From the NCBI GenBank assembly GCA_963774385.1, contig CAVZEQ010000006.1, forward strand, positions 226 through 64,225: DNA of 64,000 bases. Reading direction: 5' to 3'. The position numbers and the translations under genes are program-made. Origin of the DNA: an uncultured Actinomycetota bacterium. GTDB taxonomy: Bacteria > Actinomycetota > Actinomycetes > Streptosporangiales > Streptosporangiaceae. The notes under the pieces are model-generated. The model was not told the origin of the DNA. It searched no databases and saw nothing but the letters and a program-made list of their open reading frames with translations. This document shows positions 53,082-64,000 of this stretch, piece by piece (the stretch's first letter is position 1; every line of letters starts with the position of its first letter).

Positions 53082-53154
53082 TCCCGCGTCGTCTAACTCG
53101 GCAGGACATCCGGTTTTGGTCCGGACAATTGAGGTTCAAATCCTCACGCGGGAG
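53082..53154 (+). tRNA. tRNA-Gln (anticodon UUG)
   Basis: Hand-folded cloverleaf of 73 nt. Acceptor stem TCCCGCG/CGCGGGA; D stem GTCT/GGAC; anticodon stem TCCGG/CCGGA with loop TTTTGGT; T arm TGAGG-TTCAAAT-CCTCA; discriminator G. CCA is not fully encoded. Confidence 0.85.
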
Positions 53155-53251
53155 CACATCGCACTTAGCGCGTATTCGTCGGCCTCAGCCGGCACCGCCC
53201 GAGCGCCGCGACGGGCTCTGTGCGCGTGATTGCACCGGGTACCGTGGTCGT

Positions 53252-56005: not shown

Positions 56006-56599
56006 ATGAATACCGTGACTGAAGTCTCGATGTCAAGAGATATGCTCGCGGCTATGGCGCCACCGATCCAGCCAGAGAGCGACGAGGTCGACGACATCGT
56101 GCTGCGCTGGCAGGCCGAGCGCCCTGACCTCGACGTCACGCCGCTGCAGGTGCTCAGCCGGATCTCCCGGCTGGCCCGGCACCTCGACCGTGCCAGGCGC
56201 GCGGCCTTCGCAGCGCATGGCCTTGAGCCATGGGAATTCGATGTCCTGTCGGCACTGCGCCGCCAGGGACCGCCGTATCAGCTCAGCCCCGGCGCACTGT
56301 TGCGCGCCACCCTGGTCACCTCGGGCACCATGACCAACCGGATAGACCGGCTCGCCGCGGCGAGGCTGGTCAGGCGTCAGCGCGACAGCCAGGACAGGCG
56401 CGGCGTCCTGGTTCAGCTCTCCGGTAGCGGGCTGCGCACCGTCGACGGTGCCATGTCCGCGCTGCTGGCACAGGAGCGCGCATTGCTTACCCGACTCGAC
56501 GCTGGCCAGCAGCACGAGCTAGCCGGGCTGCTGCGGACCTTGCTGGCCCCCTATGACGCGGCCGAGCCAGCCGACGGCCGGGCCGATCAGGCGGGCTAG
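56006..56599 (+). CDS. MarR family transcriptional regulator
   Basis: Winged helix: LSPGALLRATLVTSGTMTNRIDRLAAARLVRRQRDSQDRRGVLV. Divergent from tam. The start may lie a few codons downstream. Confidence 0.85.
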   Translation: MNTVTEVSMSRDMLAAMAPPIQPESDEVDDIVLRWQAERPDLDVTPLQVLSRISRLARHLDRARRAAFAAHGLEPWEFDVLSALRRQGPPYQLSPGALLRATLVTSGTMTNRIDRLAAARLVRRQRDSQDRRGVLVQLSGSGLRTVDGAMSALLAQERALLTRLDAGQQHELAGLLRTLLAPYDAAEPADGRADQAG

Positions 56600-58422
56600 C
56601 CGAGCTGCTCGGCGACCTCCAGCCAGCGATCCTCCAGGCCGGCCCGTTCGAGCTCGACCGACCGCAGCTGCGCGCCGAGTTCCAGCAGCCTGGCGTAGTC
56701 ACTACCACTGTCCGCTAGCTCGCTGGCCAGGCGCGCCTCCGCGTCGGCCAGCCGGGCAATCTGCCGCTCGAGTCTGGCCAGCTCCTTCTGGCCAGCGCGC
56801 AGCTGCGCTGCGGTGGGACCGGCCGCGCCGGCGCCATCGACCGGCTGGCCCGCCGAAAGCTGGCCCGCCCGCAGCTGGCCCGCCAGTGGCTGATCTGCCG
56901 ATGGCAGGCTGATCGCCTGTGCTCGGCGGCTCAGGTACTCATCGACCCCGCCCGGCAGGTAGGCGAGTTTGCCGCCGATGAGCCCTAGCACATGGTCGGT
57001 CACCCGCTCGAGGAAGTACCTGTCGTGGCTGACCACCACCACGGACCCGGGAAAGCCATCCAGCAAGTCCTCAAGCTCCGTGAGGGTCTCGATGTCCAGG
57101 TCATTGGTCGGCTCGTCGAGCAGCAGCACATTCGGCTCGGCCAGCAGCATCAGGAGCAGCTGAAGGCGCCGCCGCTCGCCGCCGGACAGCTCGCCAACTC
57201 GGGTCCACTGCCGGTCACCGCGCAGCCCGAGCCTGTCGAGCAGCTGGCTGACCGAGATCTCGCGCTTACCGATCACCGCGGCGCCGCGGATCTGCTCCGC
57301 CGCCTCCAGGACCCGCAGATCCTCAGGTACCGGCACCGGTTCCTGGGTGAGGTAGCCGAGCTGCACGGTGCTGCCCGTCGTCAGCTCTCCGCTGACCTGC
57401 ACTGCGCCGTTCGACGACGGCACCGCTACGATCCCGGACAGCAGCCGCAGCAAGGTTGTCTTGCCGGTGCCGTTGACGCCCACGATGCCCACCCGGTCAC
57501 CCGGCCCGAGCTGCCAGCTGACGTCGTCCAGCAACGTGCGTCCGGCCGCGGCGACGGTCACGTCCGTGAGGTCGATGACGGTCTTGCCCAGCCGCGCGGC
57601 GGCCAGCCGCGACAGCTCCACGCCGTCGCGCGGCGGCGGCTCGTCTGCGATCAGGGCGGACGCGGCCTCGATCCGGAACTTCGGCTTGCTGGTCCGGGCC
57701 GGCGGCCCACGGCGCAGCCAGGCTAGTTCCTTGCGAAGCAGGTTCCGGCGCCGCTGGTCGATCGCCGCGGCCAGCCGGGCGCGCTCGGCCCTGGCGAGCA
57801 CGTAAGCGGAATATCCGCCGTCATAGGTGTGCAGCTGACCGTCGGCGAGCTCCCAGGTCTGCTCCGTCACCGCATCCAGGAACCAGCGGTCGTGGGTAAC
57901 GACCACATAGCTGATGGCGAACTCGCGCAGGTAGCCGGCCAGCCAGGTGATCGCCTCGATGTCGAGGTGGTTCGTCGGCTCATCCAGCAGCAGCAGGTCA
58001 TAACTGCGTCGCAGCAGCGCGGCCAGGGCAGTCCGGCGGCGCTCGCCGCCCGACAGCATCCGGACGTCCGCCGTCACGTCCAGTCCGCCCAGCAGGGCCT
58101 CGATAACCGCCCGGCTGCGCGGCTCGGCCGCCCACTCGTGCTCGGCCAGCGAGCCGAAGACGACCTCAGCGACCGAGCCGGCCAGCTGCTCGGCCTGCGG
58201 CAGGTAGCCGATCGTGACATCCCTGGCGCGGGTAGTGCGGCCGGAGTCTAGCTCGGCAGTGCCAGCGAGGGCGGCAAGCAGCGTGGTCTTGCCGGCCCCG
58301 TTCCGGCCTACCACGCCGATCCGCTGGCCCGCTGAGACGCCCAGCGATAGCCGGTCCAGCAAGATCCGCTCGTGATAAGCCTTAGCTGCCTGCTCAAGGT
58401 TGACGAGGTTCGTGCCGGTCAC
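56596..58422 (-). CDS. ABC-F family ATPase (two ABC cassettes, no membrane domain)
   Basis: Walker A motifs GRNGAGKTT and GVNGTGKTT; signature LSGGERRR occurs twice; coiled-coil C-terminus. Confidence 0.9.
   Translation of the reverse strand: MTGTNLVNLEQAAKAYHERILLDRLSLGVSAGQRIGVVGRNGAGKTTLLAALAGTAELDSGRTTRARDVTIGYLPQAEQLAGSVAEVVFGSLAEHEWAAEPRSRAVIEALLGGLDVTADVRMLSGGERRRTALAALLRRSYDLLLLDEPTNHLDIEAITWLAGYLREFAISYVVVTHDRWFLDAVTEQTWELADGQLHTYDGGYSAYVLARAERARLAAAIDQRRRNLLRKELAWLRRGPPARTSKPKFRIEAASALIADEPPPRDGVELSRLAAARLGKTVIDLTDVTVAAAGRTLLDDVSWQLGPGDRVGIVGVNGTGKTTLLRLLSGIVAVPSSNGAVQVSGELTTGSTVQLGYLTQEPVPVPEDLRVLEAAEQIRGAAVIGKREISVSQLLDRLGLRGDRQWTRVGELSGGERRRLQLLLMLLAEPNVLLLDEPTNDLDIETLTELEDLLDGFPGSVVVVSHDRYFLERVTDHVLGLIGGKLAYLPGGVDEYLSRRAQAISLPSADQPLAGQLRAGQLSAGQPVDGAGAAGPTAAQLRAGQKELARLERQIARLADAEARLASELADSGSDYARLLELGAQLRSVELERAGLEDRWLEVAEQLG
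56844..56888. repeat. tandem 15-nt repeat (3 copies plus a degenerate fourth) in the ABC-F 3' region
   Basis: GCTGGCCCGCC followed by 4 variable nt, repeated three times. It encodes xAGQL pentapeptide repeats. Confidence 0.75.
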
Positions 58423-59378
58423 GAGATAGCGCCTGCTCTGACCACGGAGGCTCCGGCCGCCGGGCCGCTGGCCCGCACCACCGCCCGGCAGGCGCCCGAG
58501 CTGGTCAGCGCCACCGCGATGTCCCGTGCGTGCGCCGCGCTCTTCGCGAGGAAGGCGCAGGTGGGCCCGGAACCGGACACGATGGCGCCGAGCGCACCGT
58601 GATCGCGGCCCTCGGCCAGCGCCCTGCGCAGCTCCGGCTGCATCGACAGGGCGGCCGGCTGAAGATCATTGGACAGTTGCGGGCCGACCTTAGCGGGATC
58701 GCCGGACCGGAGCGCCGTCATCAGCGGCGCACTGAGTTCTGGCTCGGCCTGCGCCGGCAAGCCGCTCGCCGCGGCGCGGGCGCGCAACCGGTCGCAGGTC
58801 GCGTAGACCTGCGCGGTTGACAGGCCAGCGTGGCCAAACGCCAGCGCCCAGTGATAGCTGCCGGCCGCCAGCGCCGCTGTCAGCACTTCGCCGCGGCCGC
58901 GCCCGACCGCGATCCCGCCCGCCACGGCGAACGGAACGTCGCTGCCTAGGCCCGCGCCCAGCTCGCACAGGTCGGCTTGCGACAACCCGGTCTGCCAGAG
59001 CTCGTTGCAGGCCACCAGGGTTGCGGCCGCATCTGCGCTGCCGCCGGCCAGCCCGGCTGCGACTGGGATCCGCTTGCGGATCTCGATCTGCACACCCGCG
59101 TCTGGCACGCTCGCCGCAGCCGCCAGGACACTGGCGGCCTGCCAGGCGAGGTTGGACTCATCGGCCGGCACCAGGGCCGCGTCCTCGCCCGCGATCGCGA
59201 TCGATGTCTGCCGGGCTGGCCGAACGGTGACCTCGTCCAGTAGTGACACAGCGTGAAACACAGTGACCAGGCTGTGATAGCCGTCGGGTCTGGCTGGCCC
59301 GACCGCGAGCTGCAGGTTGATCTTGGCCGGCGCGGTGACGGTGACGGCGGCGGGAGCCGGCCTGATTACGGAGATCAC
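58419..59378 (-). CDS. ispE: 4-(cytidine 5'-diphospho)-2-C-methyl-D-erythritol kinase
   Basis: GTG at 59378. Motifs APAKINLQLAV and the GHMP motif IPVAAGLAGGSADAAA. The listed 476-aa ORF is an Arg/Gly-rich upstream extension that overlaps rsmA. Confidence 0.9.
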   Translation of the reverse strand: MISVIRPAPAAVTVTAPAKINLQLAVGPARPDGYHSLVTVFHAVSLLDEVTVRPARQTSIAIAGEDAALVPADESNLAWQAASVLAAAASVPDAGVQIEIRKRIPVAAGLAGGSADAAATLVACNELWQTGLSQADLCELGAGLGSDVPFAVAGGIAVGRGRGEVLTAALAAGSYHWALAFGHAGLSTAQVYATCDRLRARAAASGLPAQAEPELSAPLMTALRSGDPAKVGPQLSNDLQPAALSMQPELRRALAEGRDHGALGAIVSGSGPTCAFLAKSAAHARDIAVALTSSGACRAVVRASGPAAGASVVRAGAIS

Positions 59379-59452
59379 GACGTGATGATCGTATCCGGAT
59401 CCAGCGCTCACCCTCTGCGTCCGCCCTCGATAGCACTCCTTCGATGGCCGCC

Positions 59453-60412
59453 TCAGCGACCGGCGTCGGCTCCGCCGGCATCGGCGATCCGGACGAAATC
59501 GGCGATCCCTAGAGCCTCGCCGCGTAGCGCAGGATCGACTCCGGCAGCGCGCAGCGTCGTCTCGGCCGCTGCCGCCGAACCTGCCCAGGCCGCGAGGGCC
59601 GACCGCAAGGTCTTCCGGCGCTGCGAGAATGCGGCGTCCACCACGGCGAACACTGCTGCCCTGGAGACTGTCCCGTGCAGCTGCGCGGCCTCTTCTGGCC
59701 GATGACGTACCAGCTCCACCAGGCCGGAGTCCACCCGCGGCACGGGCCAGAACACGGCCCGGCCGACCGACCCGGCCCGGCGAGCCGTCGCAAACCAGGC
59801 CAGCTTGGCCGACGGCACTCCGTACGTGCGGCTGCCCGGCGGCGCGCACATCCGGTCGGCGACCTCCGCCTGCACCATCACCAGGCCCCGGCGCAGTGAC
59901 GGCACGGTGGCCAGCAAATGCAGGACGACCGGGACCGAGACGTTGTAGGGCAGGTTGGCGACCAGCACAGTCGGCGGGTCGCCGGGTAGCGCACCGATCC
60001 GCGCAGCGTCAGCGAGCACGACCTCCAGGCGGTCCGATAGCTGCGGTGCCCTGGCCGCGACCGTCACCGGGAGCTGGCCGGCCAGCGCCCGGTCTATCTC
60101 GATCGCGAGCACCCGGCGCGCCGCAGCCAGCAGCGGCAGCGTCAGCGAGCCGAAGCCCGGTCCGACCTCCAGCACCACGTCCGAGGCGGTCAGCTCCGCC
60201 ATCGCGGTGATCCTCATGACGGTGCCCGCGTCGACGACGAAGTTCTGGCCAAGCCGCCTCGATGGCTCGATGCCGAGGTCGGCCGCGAGCATCCGCACAT
60301 CGGTCGGGCCAAGGAGATCTGCGGGCCGGAGCTGCCCGCTGCCATCGGACTCTGGGCCTATCGCTGCCACGGGCCGAAGATACGCTCCCCGGTCGAGTCC
60401 AGGACCGAGCAC
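59453..60412 (-). CDS. rsmA: 16S rRNA (adenine1518/1519-N6)-dimethyltransferase
   Basis: Motifs [18 protein letters not shown] and NLPYNVS. The exact start is uncertain because it overlaps the tatD end. Confidence 0.9.
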
Positions 60413-61242
60413 AGCTTCGCCACGTCCATCTGCTTGGCCGCAGCGAGCGCCCTGATGGTGTGCGCGACCTGGGCCGGCGCATTCGACTTGCCGCGGTTAG
60501 GCGCGGGGGTCAGGAACGGCGAGTCGGTCTCCGCCAGGATCAGCTCGGCCGGGGTAACTGCCGCGGCGGCCCGCAGGCCGGCCGCGTTACCGAAGGTCAC
60601 AGTGCCAGCAAAGCTCAGCACATAACCGGCCTCAGCACAGCGGGCGGCCAGCTCCGCATCGCCTGAGTAGCAGTGGAAGATCACTCGTTCCGGTGCGCCG
60701 TCAGCCGCCAGGATTGACAGGACGTCCTCGTGCGCATCCCGGTCGTGGATCATCAGCGCCTTGCCGACCTGCTTGGCAATGTCGATGTGCGCCCGGAACC
60801 ACTCGCGCTGCAGCTCGGCCGCGGCGCTGTCGCGGTAGTAATCGAGCCCGCTCTCGCCGACTGCCCGCACCTGGGGCAACGCCGCCAGCCGGGCTATCTC
60901 GGCCAGCACGGCCTCCCGCTCAGCCGCCGTTGCGGCGGCGGCCGCAGTCTCATTCGGGTGGATGGCGACAGCTGCGGACACGGCCGGGAACGAGGCCGCG
61001 CAATCGGCTGCCCACTGTGCGGACGCGACGTCGCAACCAACAGTGATGACCCGGCTGACACCAGCCGCGGCAGCCTGCGCGAGGACGTCTGATACCGCCA
61101 GATCGATCATGTCGAGGTGGCAGTGACTATCGAACGCCGCCACCGGCAGCGGCTCGGGGGCCGGTGCCTGGGGTCGCCCGATCCCGTGGCCCGGGCCGAA
61201 ACCGCGGTCAGGAGCAGGCCGGCCGGCGTCCGGCTCGGTCAC
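60358..61242 (-). CDS. tatD: TatD-family metal-dependent hydrolase
   Basis: The GTG at 61242 overlaps the metG stop (GTGA). Motifs [24 protein letters not shown] and ETDSPFLTP. Confidence 0.88.
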
Positions 61243-63029
61243 TTGCTCTCCAGCCTGGCCAGTTCCTCGTCGACGACAGACGGGTCCAGCTTCGCGAACA
61301 GTGGCACTGGCGGTGCCACCGGCGTACCGGGCCTGATCGGCTCCGATCCCCAGCGCGCCGCGGTCCGGTAGTCGCCGGTGACCACCGGATAGGTCGGCCC
61401 GCCATCCTCGTCTACCTCCTCGAGCCGAGGCATTCCTGACCATGGCTGGCCGCTGCCCAGCATCTCCGCCACCTTCTGCGATGACCTGGGCAGGAACGGC
61501 GTCAGCAGCGTCTTGCCATCGTCGACGAGCTGCAGCGCCACATGGCAGATGGTGCGCATGCGGTCCGGGTCGGTCTCCCGGAGCTTCCACGGCGCCTGAT
61601 CCGACAGGTACTTGTTGGCCTCGCTCAGGGTCCGCATCGTCTCGGTGATTGCTGCCTTGAACCGGCACCTGGCCAGCGCATCTCCGACCGTCGCGAATGC
61701 AGCCCGCGATCCGGCCAGCAGTCGCGAGTCGTCCTCGGTCAGCTGACCTGGTGCGGGTATCTCGCCGATGTTGCGCGCGGCAAAGGAGAGGCTCCGGTTA
61801 ACCAGATTGCCCCAGTTGGCGACTAGCTCGTCATTGTTGCGCCGGACGAACTCGGTCCAGGTGAAGTCGGTGTCCTGATTCTCCGGTCCGGCCACGGCGA
61901 CGTAATAGCGGAGCGCGTCGACGTCGTAACGGGCCAGGAAGTCACGAACGTAGATGACCACCGAGCGGGACGACGAGAACTTCTTGCCTTCCATCGTCAG
62001 GTACTCGCTGGAGACGACCTCAGTCGGCAGGTCAAGCTCGCCCAACGGGCCTGGCCTGCCGGCGCGGGCACCCTTGCCGGCGTAACCGAGCAGCATCGCC
62101 GGCCAGATCTCGGCATGGAAGACGATGTTGTCCTTGCCCATGAAGTAATAGGACTCGGCGTCCGGCGACTGCCAGAACGGGCGCCAGGCATCCGGATCGC
62201 CCGACCGCCTGGCCCATTCCACCGACGCAGAGAGATACCCGATCACCGCGTCGAACCACACATAGATCCGCTTGTCGGGTCGATCGCGCCAGCCGTCGAG
62301 CGGGATCGGCACCCCCCAGTCCAGATCTCTGGTAATGGCACGCGGCTGCAGGTCGCCGAGCAGGTTGAGGGAGAACTTCAGCACATTCGGCCGCCATTGC
62401 CCGCTCTTGCCCTGGAGCCAGCTGCCCAGCGCATCGGCGAACGCGGGCAGGTCCAGGAAGAACTGCTCGGTCTCCACGAAAGCCGGCGTCTCGCCGTTGA
62501 TCTTCGACCGAGGATTGATGAGGTCGATCGGATCGAGCTGGTTCCCGCAGTTGTCGCACTGGTCGCCGCGTGCGCTGTCGTACCCGCAGATCGGGCACGT
62601 TCCCTCGATATAGCGGTCCGGCAGGGTTCGGCCGGTCGACGGCGACACCGCGCCCATCGACTTTCGCGGGAAGATGTAGCCGTTCTTGTAGAGCGCGAGG
62701 AATATGTCCTGCACCACGGCGTAGTGGTTGCGCGTGGTCGTCCGGGTGAACAGGTCATACGACATGTCCAGGCCGGTCAGGTCCTCCGCGATAATGCGGT
62801 TGTAGCGGTCGGCGAGCTGCCGCTCAGTCACGCCCTCGGCGTCGGCCTGTACCTGGATGGGAGTTCCGTGCTCGTCCGTGCCGCTGACCATCAGCACCCG
62901 GTTGCCGGCCATCCGCTGGTACCGGGCGAACATGTCGCAGGGCAGCCCGAATCCGGAAACGTGGCCGATGTGCCGCGGCCCGTTGGCATACGGCCATGCG
63001 GGGGCGGCAAGAATGTGGCGGCTGGTCAT
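61239..63029 (-). CDS. metG: methionine--tRNA ligase
   Basis: 596 aa. HIGH motif in [14 protein letters not shown], zinc knuckles CPICG...CDNCG, and KMSKS-type KFSSSRS. Confidence 0.95.
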
Positions 63030-63080
63030 TGGTAGTCAGGGGCGCAGTTCCCAATGGGCCTGTTTCCCCATCCCCCTTTC

Positions 63081-63113
63081 AATCCGTACGTGCGGTTTTC
63101 CCGCATACGGCTT
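63081..63113 (-). ncRNA. group II intron domain V
   Basis: The minus strand reads AAGCCGTATGCGGGAAAACCGCACGTACGGATT. Lower helix CCGUAU/GUACGG, AC bulge, upper helix GCGG/CCGC, purine-rich apical loop, AGC triad. Confidence 0.8.
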
Positions 63114-63135
63114 ACCGATGATCTTCTTGACATGG

Positions 63136-64000
63136 TTACGCTGCCGTCGGATAGCGGATGGTGCCGCGCAGCCGGTACAGGCCGTGCCCGTTAAACCAGT
63201 CCTCATCCCACGCCAGCCACTGACCTGGCCGCAGGTTGCGGCCCCGCTTGCGGATCATGATCTTGCGGAGCCGTTTCACTGTGTAGTCATCGACCTGGCG
63301 GAACTTGGCGGCAGCGTTCCCGGTGCGGAAGTAGCTTCCCCAGCCGCGCAGCACCGGGTTGATGTCCGCGATCACGTCACGGATATCGGTTCCGGCCCGG
63401 TTGCGGCCGGTCTGATCCCGGATCCTGGCCCGGAGCCGGTTCATCGCCCGCTGCGAGGGCCATCGGTGCAGGTAGTAGCGGACGACCCGCTTCTGCTCCC
63501 ACAGCCGGCCCGACATGCGAGCGCGGAAATGGCATCCGAGGAAGTCCAGTCCCGCCCGGCCCTGCCTGAGGTCAACTACTTTCGTCTTATCCGGGTGCAG
63601 CTGAAGCCCCAGCCCGGCCAGGATGTCCCTGACCGCGTCCAGGGCCGCCCCGGCCTGCGCCGCACTACGGCACAGCACCACGCCGTCGTCGGCATAGCGC
63701 ACCAGCTCCCCCAGCCCGCGCCGGGAGAACTCGGTGTCCAGGACGTGCAGGTAGATGTTGGCCAGCAGCGGGGAGATGACCCCGCCCTGCGGCGTTCCCG
63801 CGACCGTCCGCGAGAACTCGCCTTCTGCCATCACCCCTGCCTGCAGCCACAAGCGGACCAGCTTCAGCACCCGCCGGTCCGACACCCTCCGGCTGACCTC
63901 CGCGAGCAGCCGCCCGTGATCGATCTCGCCGAAGAAGTTGCGGATGTCGAACTCCGCCGCGAACTGATAGCCCTCGATGAACCCGGTGCGCAGCCGCTCC
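63136..64000 (-). CDS. group II intron reverse transcriptase/maturase (N-terminus outside the window)
   Basis: The frame stays open to the window edge (ERLRTGFIEGYQFAAEFDIRNFFGEIDHGRLL...). Motifs GTPQGGVISPLLANIYL and YADD; maturase X-domain RGWGSYFRTGNAAAKF. No HNH endonuclease domain is seen. Confidence 0.9.
   Translation of the reverse strand, partial: ERLRTGFIEGYQFAAEFDIRNFFGEIDHGRLLAEVSRRVSDRRVLKLVRLWLQAGVMAEGEFSRTVAGTPQGGVISPLLANIYLHVLDTEFSRRGLGELVRYADDGVVLCRSAAQAGAALDAVRDILAGLGLQLHPDKTKVVDLRQGRAGLDFLGCHFRARMSGRLWEQKRVVRYYLHRWPSQRAMNRLRARIRDQTGRNRAGTDIRDVIADINPVLRGWGSYFRTGNAAAKFRQVDDYTVKRLRKIMIRKRGRNLRPGQWLAWDEDWFNGHGLYRLRGTIRYPTAA

Follow-up and report, generated by a model that had tools for sequence, protein, structure and literature searches.

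The metG gene of an uncultured actinobacterium of the Streptosporangiaceae, which encodes methionyl-tRNA synthetase (MetRS), lies on the minus strand of contig CAVZEQ010000006.1 with a group II intron directly upstream of its apparent start codon, and raises the question of where the intron ends, which ATG belongs to the gene, and how MetRS is made from such an arrangement. The DNA analysed, referred to as the window, is a stretch of 64,000 nt from this contig; the 5′ half of the intron (~1,020 nt) falls outside it and was read from relatives only. The visible part is interpreted as the 3′ half of a mobile, endonuclease-less intron that separates codon 1 from codon 2 in a metG gene which is leaderless by nature, a reading to which sequence comparison gives a probability of roughly three in four. 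Confidence is high for the boundaries and for the insertion rule of the intron family, and moderate as to whether this copy is complete and functional, since its 5′ half lies off the window.

The intron in the window and its full-length relatives

Positions 63027-64000 of the window, on the minus strand, are the 3′ half of a group II intron. Its reverse transcriptase (RT)/maturase open reading frame (ORF) runs off the window end without internal stops, contains DIRNFFGEIDH and YADD in translation, and matches Pfam RVT_1 (E 4.2e-22) and GIIM (E 1.2e-16); no endonuclease domain was found in the window RT, where the ORF stops ~35 aa past GIIM and Pfam gave no HNH match. Domain V (D5) begins 22 nt past the RT stop and ends 51 nt short of the ATG at 63029. 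These motifs and distances, all present on the minus strand, had been given correctly in the initial annotation, which concluded from them that a group II intron meets metG with its 3′ end, and this conclusion stands, with RT, domain V and domain VI (D6) all present. The covariance check proposed there was performed as an E-value scan, and matched Rfam Intron_gpII (RF00029) at 63035-63115(-) with 38.1 bits and E 1.2e-5; the gathering score of this family is 40, so that a default Rfam scan, run at gathering level, misses the window intron. The relative L081 scores 42.4 bits with the same model.

Homologues of the window RT fragment number in the thousands, the best 120 being 82-89% identical. 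About 100 loci with RT homologues were fetched, and 61 distinct full-length intron copies of 1975-2005 nt were recovered from them, with RTs 78-89% identical and ~60 copies at ~60 different sites. Pairing counts were made on 60 copies, 59 distinct 5′ flanks and 66 distinct 3′ flanks, with 51 flanks used for the second exon-binding site (EBS2, below) and 40 copies for the fold. The full-length relatives match Rfam group-II-D1D4-4 (RF02003) at 90-96 bits (gathering score 49), the RT of one of them (P0001) matches TIGR04416 at 408.9 bits, and the best solved-structure matches of the RT are IIC-type RTs (GsI-IIC, E 1.8e-64). The nearest full-length copy, L109, also lies at metG, in a different organism; intron and exon together (L109:1-2622) are 86.9% identical to the window, and the last 974 nt of the intron are 88.4-88.9% identical at the nucleotide level, over their full length, to L109 positions 1022-1996. 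Conservation of the visible 974 nt against relatives is even, with the RT frame open.

In a 40-sequence alignment, the consensus fold of D5 and D6 is supported by compensatory changes, including an AU/GC change at D5 pair 9-27 and three states at D6 pair 55-74 (GC 23, CG 14, AU 3), of which the window has the AU variant (CAG...CUG). A bulged A (column 87) is unpaired between pairs 42-86 and 41-88 in 40/40 sequences, and is the predicted branch point.

Pairing of the intron with host start codons and promoter boxes

Every copy ends in ...CUACCA[A/G]UG (...GCGCCCCUGACUACCA[A/G]UG), followed by differing sequence, and every copy begins with [G/U]UG[C/U]GUCCUG, preceded by another start codon. With a start codon at both intron ends, four splice registers are formally possible. 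By the canonical rule, the first intron-binding site (IBS1) abuts the 5′ splice site, and the exon-binding sites EBS1 and EBS3 flank the insertion point, so that the register can be read from covariation between ribozyme and flanks. EBS1 and EBS3 were tested on the relatives; the window itself shows only IBS3 (A, 63026).

For EBS3, the base after the 3′ triplet pairs with ribozyme column 281 (GGGGUA[N]GGAGG) in 57/60 copies (A-U 27, G-C 22, C-G 8, three exceptions), with a mutual information of 1.18 bits against at most 0.31 for every other column, and the pairing holds both in copies starting with G and in copies starting with U. For EBS1, the CAUG of a hairpin loop (CUCAUGUCA) faces C[A/G]UG; when columns 210-213 were compared with the flank, the two variable positions were paired in 59/60 and 60/60 copies, and the rare variants CACG/CGUG, CACA/UGUG and CACU/GGUG each fit their own flanks. 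With these two sites on either side of the insertion point, the intron is placed between the native start codon and codon 2, and has [A/G]UG as its own last bases. Mapped onto the window, these pairings put the 3′ splice site between 63027 and 63026 (CCAATG|ACC), and by this assignment the visible metG ATG is intron sequence. The other three registers, in which the intron would start from the upstream [A/G]UG or be shifted by 1 or 2 nt, are contradicted by both the EBS3 and the EBS1 pairings.

The two junctions offered by the initial annotation, CTAC|C and CCAAT|G, are superseded by this site: CCAAT|G is one of the three contradicted registers, and ligation at CTAC|C would yield ATG-CAA-TGA. 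The end point of the Rfam match, 63035, was also set aside as a 3′ splice site, being a low-confidence alignment of the variable D6. In the consensus fold J2/3 reads CGA, and the terminal intron G is proposed to be the γ′ partner of the J2/3 C.

A start codon at each end could also have arisen as a 3-bp target-site duplication, in which case the downstream ATG would be native and the intron would end ...CUACCA. Identical triplets are found at both ends in 48/60 copies, as such a duplication would leave them (5′/3′ triplets ATG/ATG 45 and GTG/GTG 3), and unequal ones in the remaining 12/60 (GTG/ATG 10, ATG/GTG 2). In L109 the upstream triplet is GTG and the intron-terminal one ATG. Junctions of the family are also confirmed by long-read contigs, among them the 1.1-Mb contig of L176, with this same combination of GTG and ATG. 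EBS3, moreover, pairs with the base after the downstream triplet and not with the first base of that triplet, and target-site duplication is not expected from reverse splicing. A duplication is accordingly considered very improbable.

The base before the start codon is C in 54/59 distinct 5′ flanks, the codon being ATG in 44 and GTG in 15, and TANNNT stands 6-7 nt before the start codon in 56/59. Nearly all of the 66 distinct 3′ flanks are long ORFs in frame with the intron-terminal triplet, and judged by their N-terminal sequences the genes apparently include YchF, MetRS, GatC, Rpe, FolP, KsgA/RsmA, ThiI-like and many regulators, including TetR-type ones. The initial annotation had treated contact with a housekeeping gene as a rare event for such an intron; it is replaced here by a systematic insertion rule of the whole family, with ~60 different genes, including metG, interrupted right past codon 1, contrary to the picture of introns shunning housekeeping genes.

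The 3′ half of the TANNNT box is itself part of the pairing. Upstream of the EBS1 hairpin, domain I contains a single-stranded stretch, GUCA-N-A-NNN-ACA, that covaries with this -10 hexamer, as tested on 51 flanks aligned on the hexamer with 3000 shuffles. An invariant intron A faces hexamer position 6 (T) and is paired in 51/51, a position which cannot vary; the next base 3′ of it pairs with hexamer position 5 in 43/51 (shuffle mean 20.9), the second base 3′ with position 4 in 46/51 (shuffle mean 34.9), and the base 5′ of the invariant A with the base following the hexamer in 39/51 (shuffle mean 21.6). The observed pairing was reached in 0/3000 shuffles at each of the three variable positions. 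Further pairing was sought at hexamer position 3 and at the TA, and was not significant or absent. The resulting target is TAN[NNTN]-N4-5-[CRTG]|[N], read by nine RNA-DNA pairs in three blocks, and L109 satisfies 9/9 of these with its own flanks. The EBS/IBS pairings that the initial annotation had suggested looking for are thus found in the relatives, with IBS3 the part visible in the window. The targeting rule appears to be undescribed before: a link of group II introns to leaderless genes, or to -10 boxes as targets, was not found in openly readable reviews and surveys, and an earlier description is possible.

Two further features of the family were noted. No copy in which EBS3 is C, and codon 2 accordingly begins with G, has G as intron base 1 (0/24), which reads as avoidance of an EBS3 pairing with intron base 1, because a G there would make the occupied 5′ junction resemble a fresh target or a ligated-exon junction. 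The intron-borne triplet, in turn, follows EBS1 position 3, with C accompanying GUG in 3/4 copies and U accompanying AUG in 54/56 (Fisher p 0.0011), which suggests an RNA-level role for the triplet, beside or replacing that of a fallback start codon.

Proposed expression of metG across the intron

The metG ORF of the window is intact (596 aa), matches Pfam tRNA-synt_1g (E 6e-143) and also Anticodon_3, and its product is 98% identical at the amino acid level to the protein of an intron-free relative, L001; the closest metG relatives of the host are from Streptosporangiaceae and other Actinomycetota. No Shine-Dalgarno (SD)-like run was found in the 13 nt preceding the ATG (CCCCTGACTACCA), as the initial annotation had also noted, and no match to a sigma-70-type promoter consensus was obtained within 62900-64000. 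For expression of metG from an intron-internal promoter, which had been put forward there, neither a promoter nor an SD sequence was found in this stretch.

Comparison with intron-free metG upstream regions, likewise proposed at that stage, was also made. L001 is 95.9% identical in nucleotide sequence over 11.8 kb, in an alignment that begins exactly at window 63029, and upstream of its metG start reads ...GTAAGCTGAGGCC|ATG, that is, TAAGCT-GAGGCC-ATG|ACC. A TAGGCT-like -10-type hexamer (mostly TAGGCT) lies 6-7 nt before the ATG in 18/18 of the closest intron-free metG loci, which were read directly, and among 80 actinobacterial loci from a MetRS scan of the genome collection, TANNNT is found 6-7 nt before an in-frame start in at least 62, most of the others having the same box at slightly different spacing. 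An actinobacterial -10 hexamer whose end lies 6-7 nt ahead of the start codon marks the gene as leaderless. Because this box occupies that position in the intron-free relatives, metG is probably natively leaderless; there was therefore probably no 5′ untranslated region (UTR) or ribosome-binding site for an intron to displace, and the missing SD sequence would be a native trait. The empty site in L001 (GCTG...CATG|A) would be a perfect target for an intron of the L109 type.

This bears directly on the arrangement favoured in the initial annotation, in which the intron would end before the native metG ATG, with a normal 5′ UTR and its ribosome-binding site as exon 1. The lack of an SD sequence before the ATG would fit such a displacement, as would the Rfam alignment, which stops at 63035, six bases before the ATG. 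The -10 box at 6-7 nt from the ATG (18/18; at least 62/80) leaves no room for a UTR, however, the homology to L001 begins at the ATG itself, EBS3 pairs with the base past that ATG and EBS1 with the upstream start codon, and the Rfam end falls within the poorly aligned D6. That part of the proposal is hardly credible, and what stands of it is that the expression signals of metG have been displaced by the whole intron. A leaderless metG mRNA, which the annotation named as an option, is in line with the intron-free loci.

For the preferred reading, with the intron between codons 1 and 2, the following sequence of events is envisaged. By the family rule, as seen in the relatives, EBS2 of the intron RNA reads the last bases (3′ half) of the -10 hexamer and the base that follows them (IBS2); after 4-5 unpaired bases, the base preceding the start codon together with the start codon (C-R-U-G, IBS1) is read by the EBS1 loop CAUG, and the first base of codon 2 (IBS3) by EBS3. 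Insertion takes place immediately past the start codon, with the intron terminating in its own AUG or GUG. At the present locus, what remains of the intron would be expected, together with the native ATG and a TAAGCT-like -10 box, ~1 kb past the window end, placing promoter and ATG ~2 kb upstream of exon 2. Transcription starting at or next to the native ATG would give a pre-mRNA with a 3-nt 5′ exon, from which lariat splicing at the bulged A (63033) would join AUG to ACC (63026) and restore the native leaderless mRNA, pppAUG-ACC. MetRS output would then depend on ribozyme splicing, a dependence that had been raised before as a possibility and is retained as one: MetRS synthesis may require splicing. 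The intron-borne AUG (63029-63027) would preserve an apparently intact ORF in the DNA, and perhaps act as a reserve initiation codon when the RNA is not spliced, or pair with EBS1.

Several observations weigh against this reading. The 5′ half of the intron and exon 1 lie off the window, and the completeness of this copy, its EBS sequences and its upstream promoter are taken from relatives; the transcription start, the 3-nt 5′ exon and splicing are themselves deduced from sequence. The D5-D6 score of the window falls slightly under the curated Rfam threshold. The invariant TA of the hexamer is unexplained by pairing, a 3-bp EBS1-IBS1 RNA helix is weak and exon ligation possibly inefficient, and some metagenome contigs may be chimeric across the intron repeat. 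Finally, intron base 1 is U in 40/60 copies (e.g. L082:2306, L095:2632), which is non-canonical: base 1 of group II introns is near-universally G, the canonical 5′ end being GUGYG.

Two further explanations accept the 3′ boundary and dispense with splicing. In the first, the window would hold a dead, 5′-truncated intron, and metG would be transcribed by read-through or from an unidentified promoter and translated from the intron-derived ATG. In bacteria the majority of group II introns have been truncated or inactivated (PMC4424553), the 5′ half is beyond view, and in another relative, L002, an internal piece of such an intron of the family is present. The 974 nt in the window, by contrast, are evenly conserved, with the RT open and D5 and D6 intact with compensatory changes, and the relative at the same site, L109, is full length; a non-splicing insertion would also sever an essential, single-copy-looking metG from its promoter and start, with no promoter consensus or SD sequence found in their place. 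A dead fragment is considered distinctly unlikely.

In the second, the intron would be intact and MetRS would be made mainly from unspliced RNA through the intron-borne AUG, for example by ribosomes ending the RT ORF 107 nt upstream, splicing being dispensable. An in-frame AUG or GUG forms the last three bases of every member of the family, which is hard to explain by ribozyme needs alone and speaks for this possibility. It would have to operate without an SD sequence and with D6 pairing that reaches to two bases before the AUG, and the dependence of the triplet on EBS1 points to an RNA-level role more than to a purely translational one. Translation from unspliced RNA as the main source of MetRS is considered unlikely.

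Translation at the 5′ end of the intron is a separate matter. The host start codon opens a frame of ~125 codons through domains I-II (the first ~375 nt; e.g. L081, L095) in 51/61 copies, and its UGA overlaps the AUG of the called RT ORF (AUGGUGA); in L095 it continues into the RT as one fused frame of 623 codons. In the two remaining frames a stop is met after 11-17 codons (medians). The RT could thus be translated by ribosomes loaded at the host start codon. The frame may also be a by-product of high G+C, for which an estimated ~5% would be open by chance, and the RT frame is likewise open far upstream.

Taken across the family, the pairings point to a broader proposal, judged a little better than an even bet: the intron lineage would act as a detector of leaderless starts, with EBS2 reading the -10 hexamer, EBS1 the start codon, its CAU matching the anticodon of initiator tRNA, and EBS3 codon 2. 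Each copy would thereby capture the host promoter and possibly the start codon, would be spliced from a 5′ exon of 3 nt and would leave a spare start codon, and at the present locus an essential aminoacyl-tRNA synthetase would be gated by a ribozyme. If this is true, the 3-nt 5′ exon and spare AUG would offer a natural system for minimal exon recognition, leaderless translation and intron-gated expression, and the EBS2/EBS3 code could guide retargeting to promoters. With ATG as the last bases of the intron, such a locus is annotated by gene callers as an intact gene preceded by an ‘RT gene’, and the interruption is invisible to them.

Comparison with known introns, feature coordinates and neighbouring genes

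Group IIC introns insert after Rho-independent terminators or in attC sites. The present family resembles them in having no endonuclease, in using a gene-boundary signal as target, and in its short IBS1 (3-4 nt) and single IBS3 pair. Group IIC introns, however, recognise a DNA hairpin, have no EBS2 and lie outside genes, whereas the present introns use a -10 box with no need of a hairpin, have an EBS2-like segment and a larger ribozyme, and lie inside an ORF. In place of a hairpin and T-run, the 5′ flanks carry TANNNT-N6/7-start codon (56/59), and although the 4-nt IBS1 is as short as in group IIC, the EBS2-like segment covaries with the target.

RmInt1 is an endonuclease-less retrohoming IIB intron (PMC5010178), and introns of its type share with the present family a length of ~1.9-2.0 kb, an RT-X protein without endonuclease, EBS1, EBS2 and EBS3 in domain I in the usual order, and the D6 bulged A. 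Canonical IIB introns have one long contiguous IBS2-IBS1 and usually reside in mobile DNA; here each of the two is 4 nt, with 4-5 unpaired bases between them, and EBS2 and EBS3 vary from copy to copy, fitting ~60 different host promoters.

Insertion at start or stop codons has been described for a proteobacterial IIB1/CL1 clade with a 300-700 nt domain-I insertion (Michel 2007, Biochimie 89:542, as cited by Gomes et al. 2025, PMC12584367), with Avi.groEL and EcKTE56.groEL among the examples named in the latter (PMC12584367), where the way in which these introns find such codons is stated to be unknown (PMC12584367). The likeness lies in insertion in or next to the initiation or termination codon of a housekeeping gene, here after the metG start and, in relatives, in ~60 other genes, and in the re-creation of the codon at the junction: as presented in that account, the groEL intron changes UAA to UAG, and the present family supplies AUG. 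The clade is proteobacterial and has a CL1 RT with endonuclease, whereas the present family is actinobacterial, ~2.0 kb long and without endonuclease, and has no room for the domain-I insertion (1975-2005 nt, with an ORF of at least 1.2 kb, a 107-nt 3′ tail, and the RF02003 match starting ~25 nt from the 5′ end). Against the unexplained targeting of that clade, EBS/IBS covariation here gives a concrete rule, so that a testable base-pairing rule that includes a promoter element is available for start-codon-specialised introns, a habit known since 2007.

The Ty3 retrotransposon integrates beside transcription start sites (analogy in PMC7306698), and is similar as a retroelement that secures its own transcription at a host transcription start. 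Ty3 uses host transcription factors for this, whereas direct RNA-DNA pairing is indicated for the present family, with a protein contribution possible at the invariant TA.

Table 1. Intron and metG features in the window; positions are those of the window.
Feature	Position	Strand	Basis
Group II intron, 3′ part, 974 nt (~49% of ~2.0 kb)	63027..64000	-	alignment to full-length L109
RT/maturase C-terminus, 287 codons (63999-63139) and TAA stop (63138-63136)	63136..64000	-	translation, Pfam
Linker, 22 nt, 3′ side of domain IV, ORF stop to domain V	63114..63135	-	conserved in all relatives
Domain V (AAGCCGUAUGCGGGAAAACCGCACGUACGGAUU)	63081..63113	-	Rfam RF00029 alignment, consensus helix
Domain VI, distal hairpin variable	63031..63076	-	consensus structure, 40 copies
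Domain VI bulged adenosine, predicted branch point, seventh base from intron 3′ end	63033	-	unpaired column 87
Intron-borne AUG, predicted final three intron bases	63027..63029	-	conserved 3′ end and EBS3 covariation
IBS3, exon 2 base 1 (A, from ACC as codon 2); predicted 3′ splice site 63027/63026	63026	-	column 281 pairing in relatives
metG exon 2, codons 2-596 and stop codon	61239..63026	-	ORF list, Pfam, L001 identity

The basal AGC triad of domain V has its G opposite an A (or requires a one-base bulge) and not in the usual G-U pair, a feature conserved family-wide.

Some loci depart from the general pattern of the family. Within the pairs L116/L117 and L172/L173, the 5′ flank is shared and the 3′ flanks differ, which suggests either chimeric assembly across the intron repeat or a close similarity of the promoters. 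In L107, unrelated sequence ending ...GGTCCCAATG stands in place of D6, the 3′ end of this copy being rearranged or degenerate. L177 was set aside, its RT being truncated and its junctions not recognisable, and the copy at L002, an internal fragment only, was uninformative. The metG of L002 (MetRS 93% identical) is intron-free, and the fragment lies ~8 kb downstream of it (L002:19967-20991), corresponding to intron nt 483-1501.

Directly downstream of metG in the window, on the same strand, is a housekeeping cluster (56596-61248, minus strand) with a TatD-like hydrolase, an RsmA/KsgA rRNA dimethylase, a GHMP-kinase (IspE-like) and an ABC-F ATPase, whose ORFs are closely spaced or overlapping. 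Because metG heads this minus-strand cluster, the intron may sit at the front of an operon. Further along the window, a tRNA-Gln gene (anticodon UUG) at 53082-53155 on the plus strand is the sole Rfam match at gathering level.

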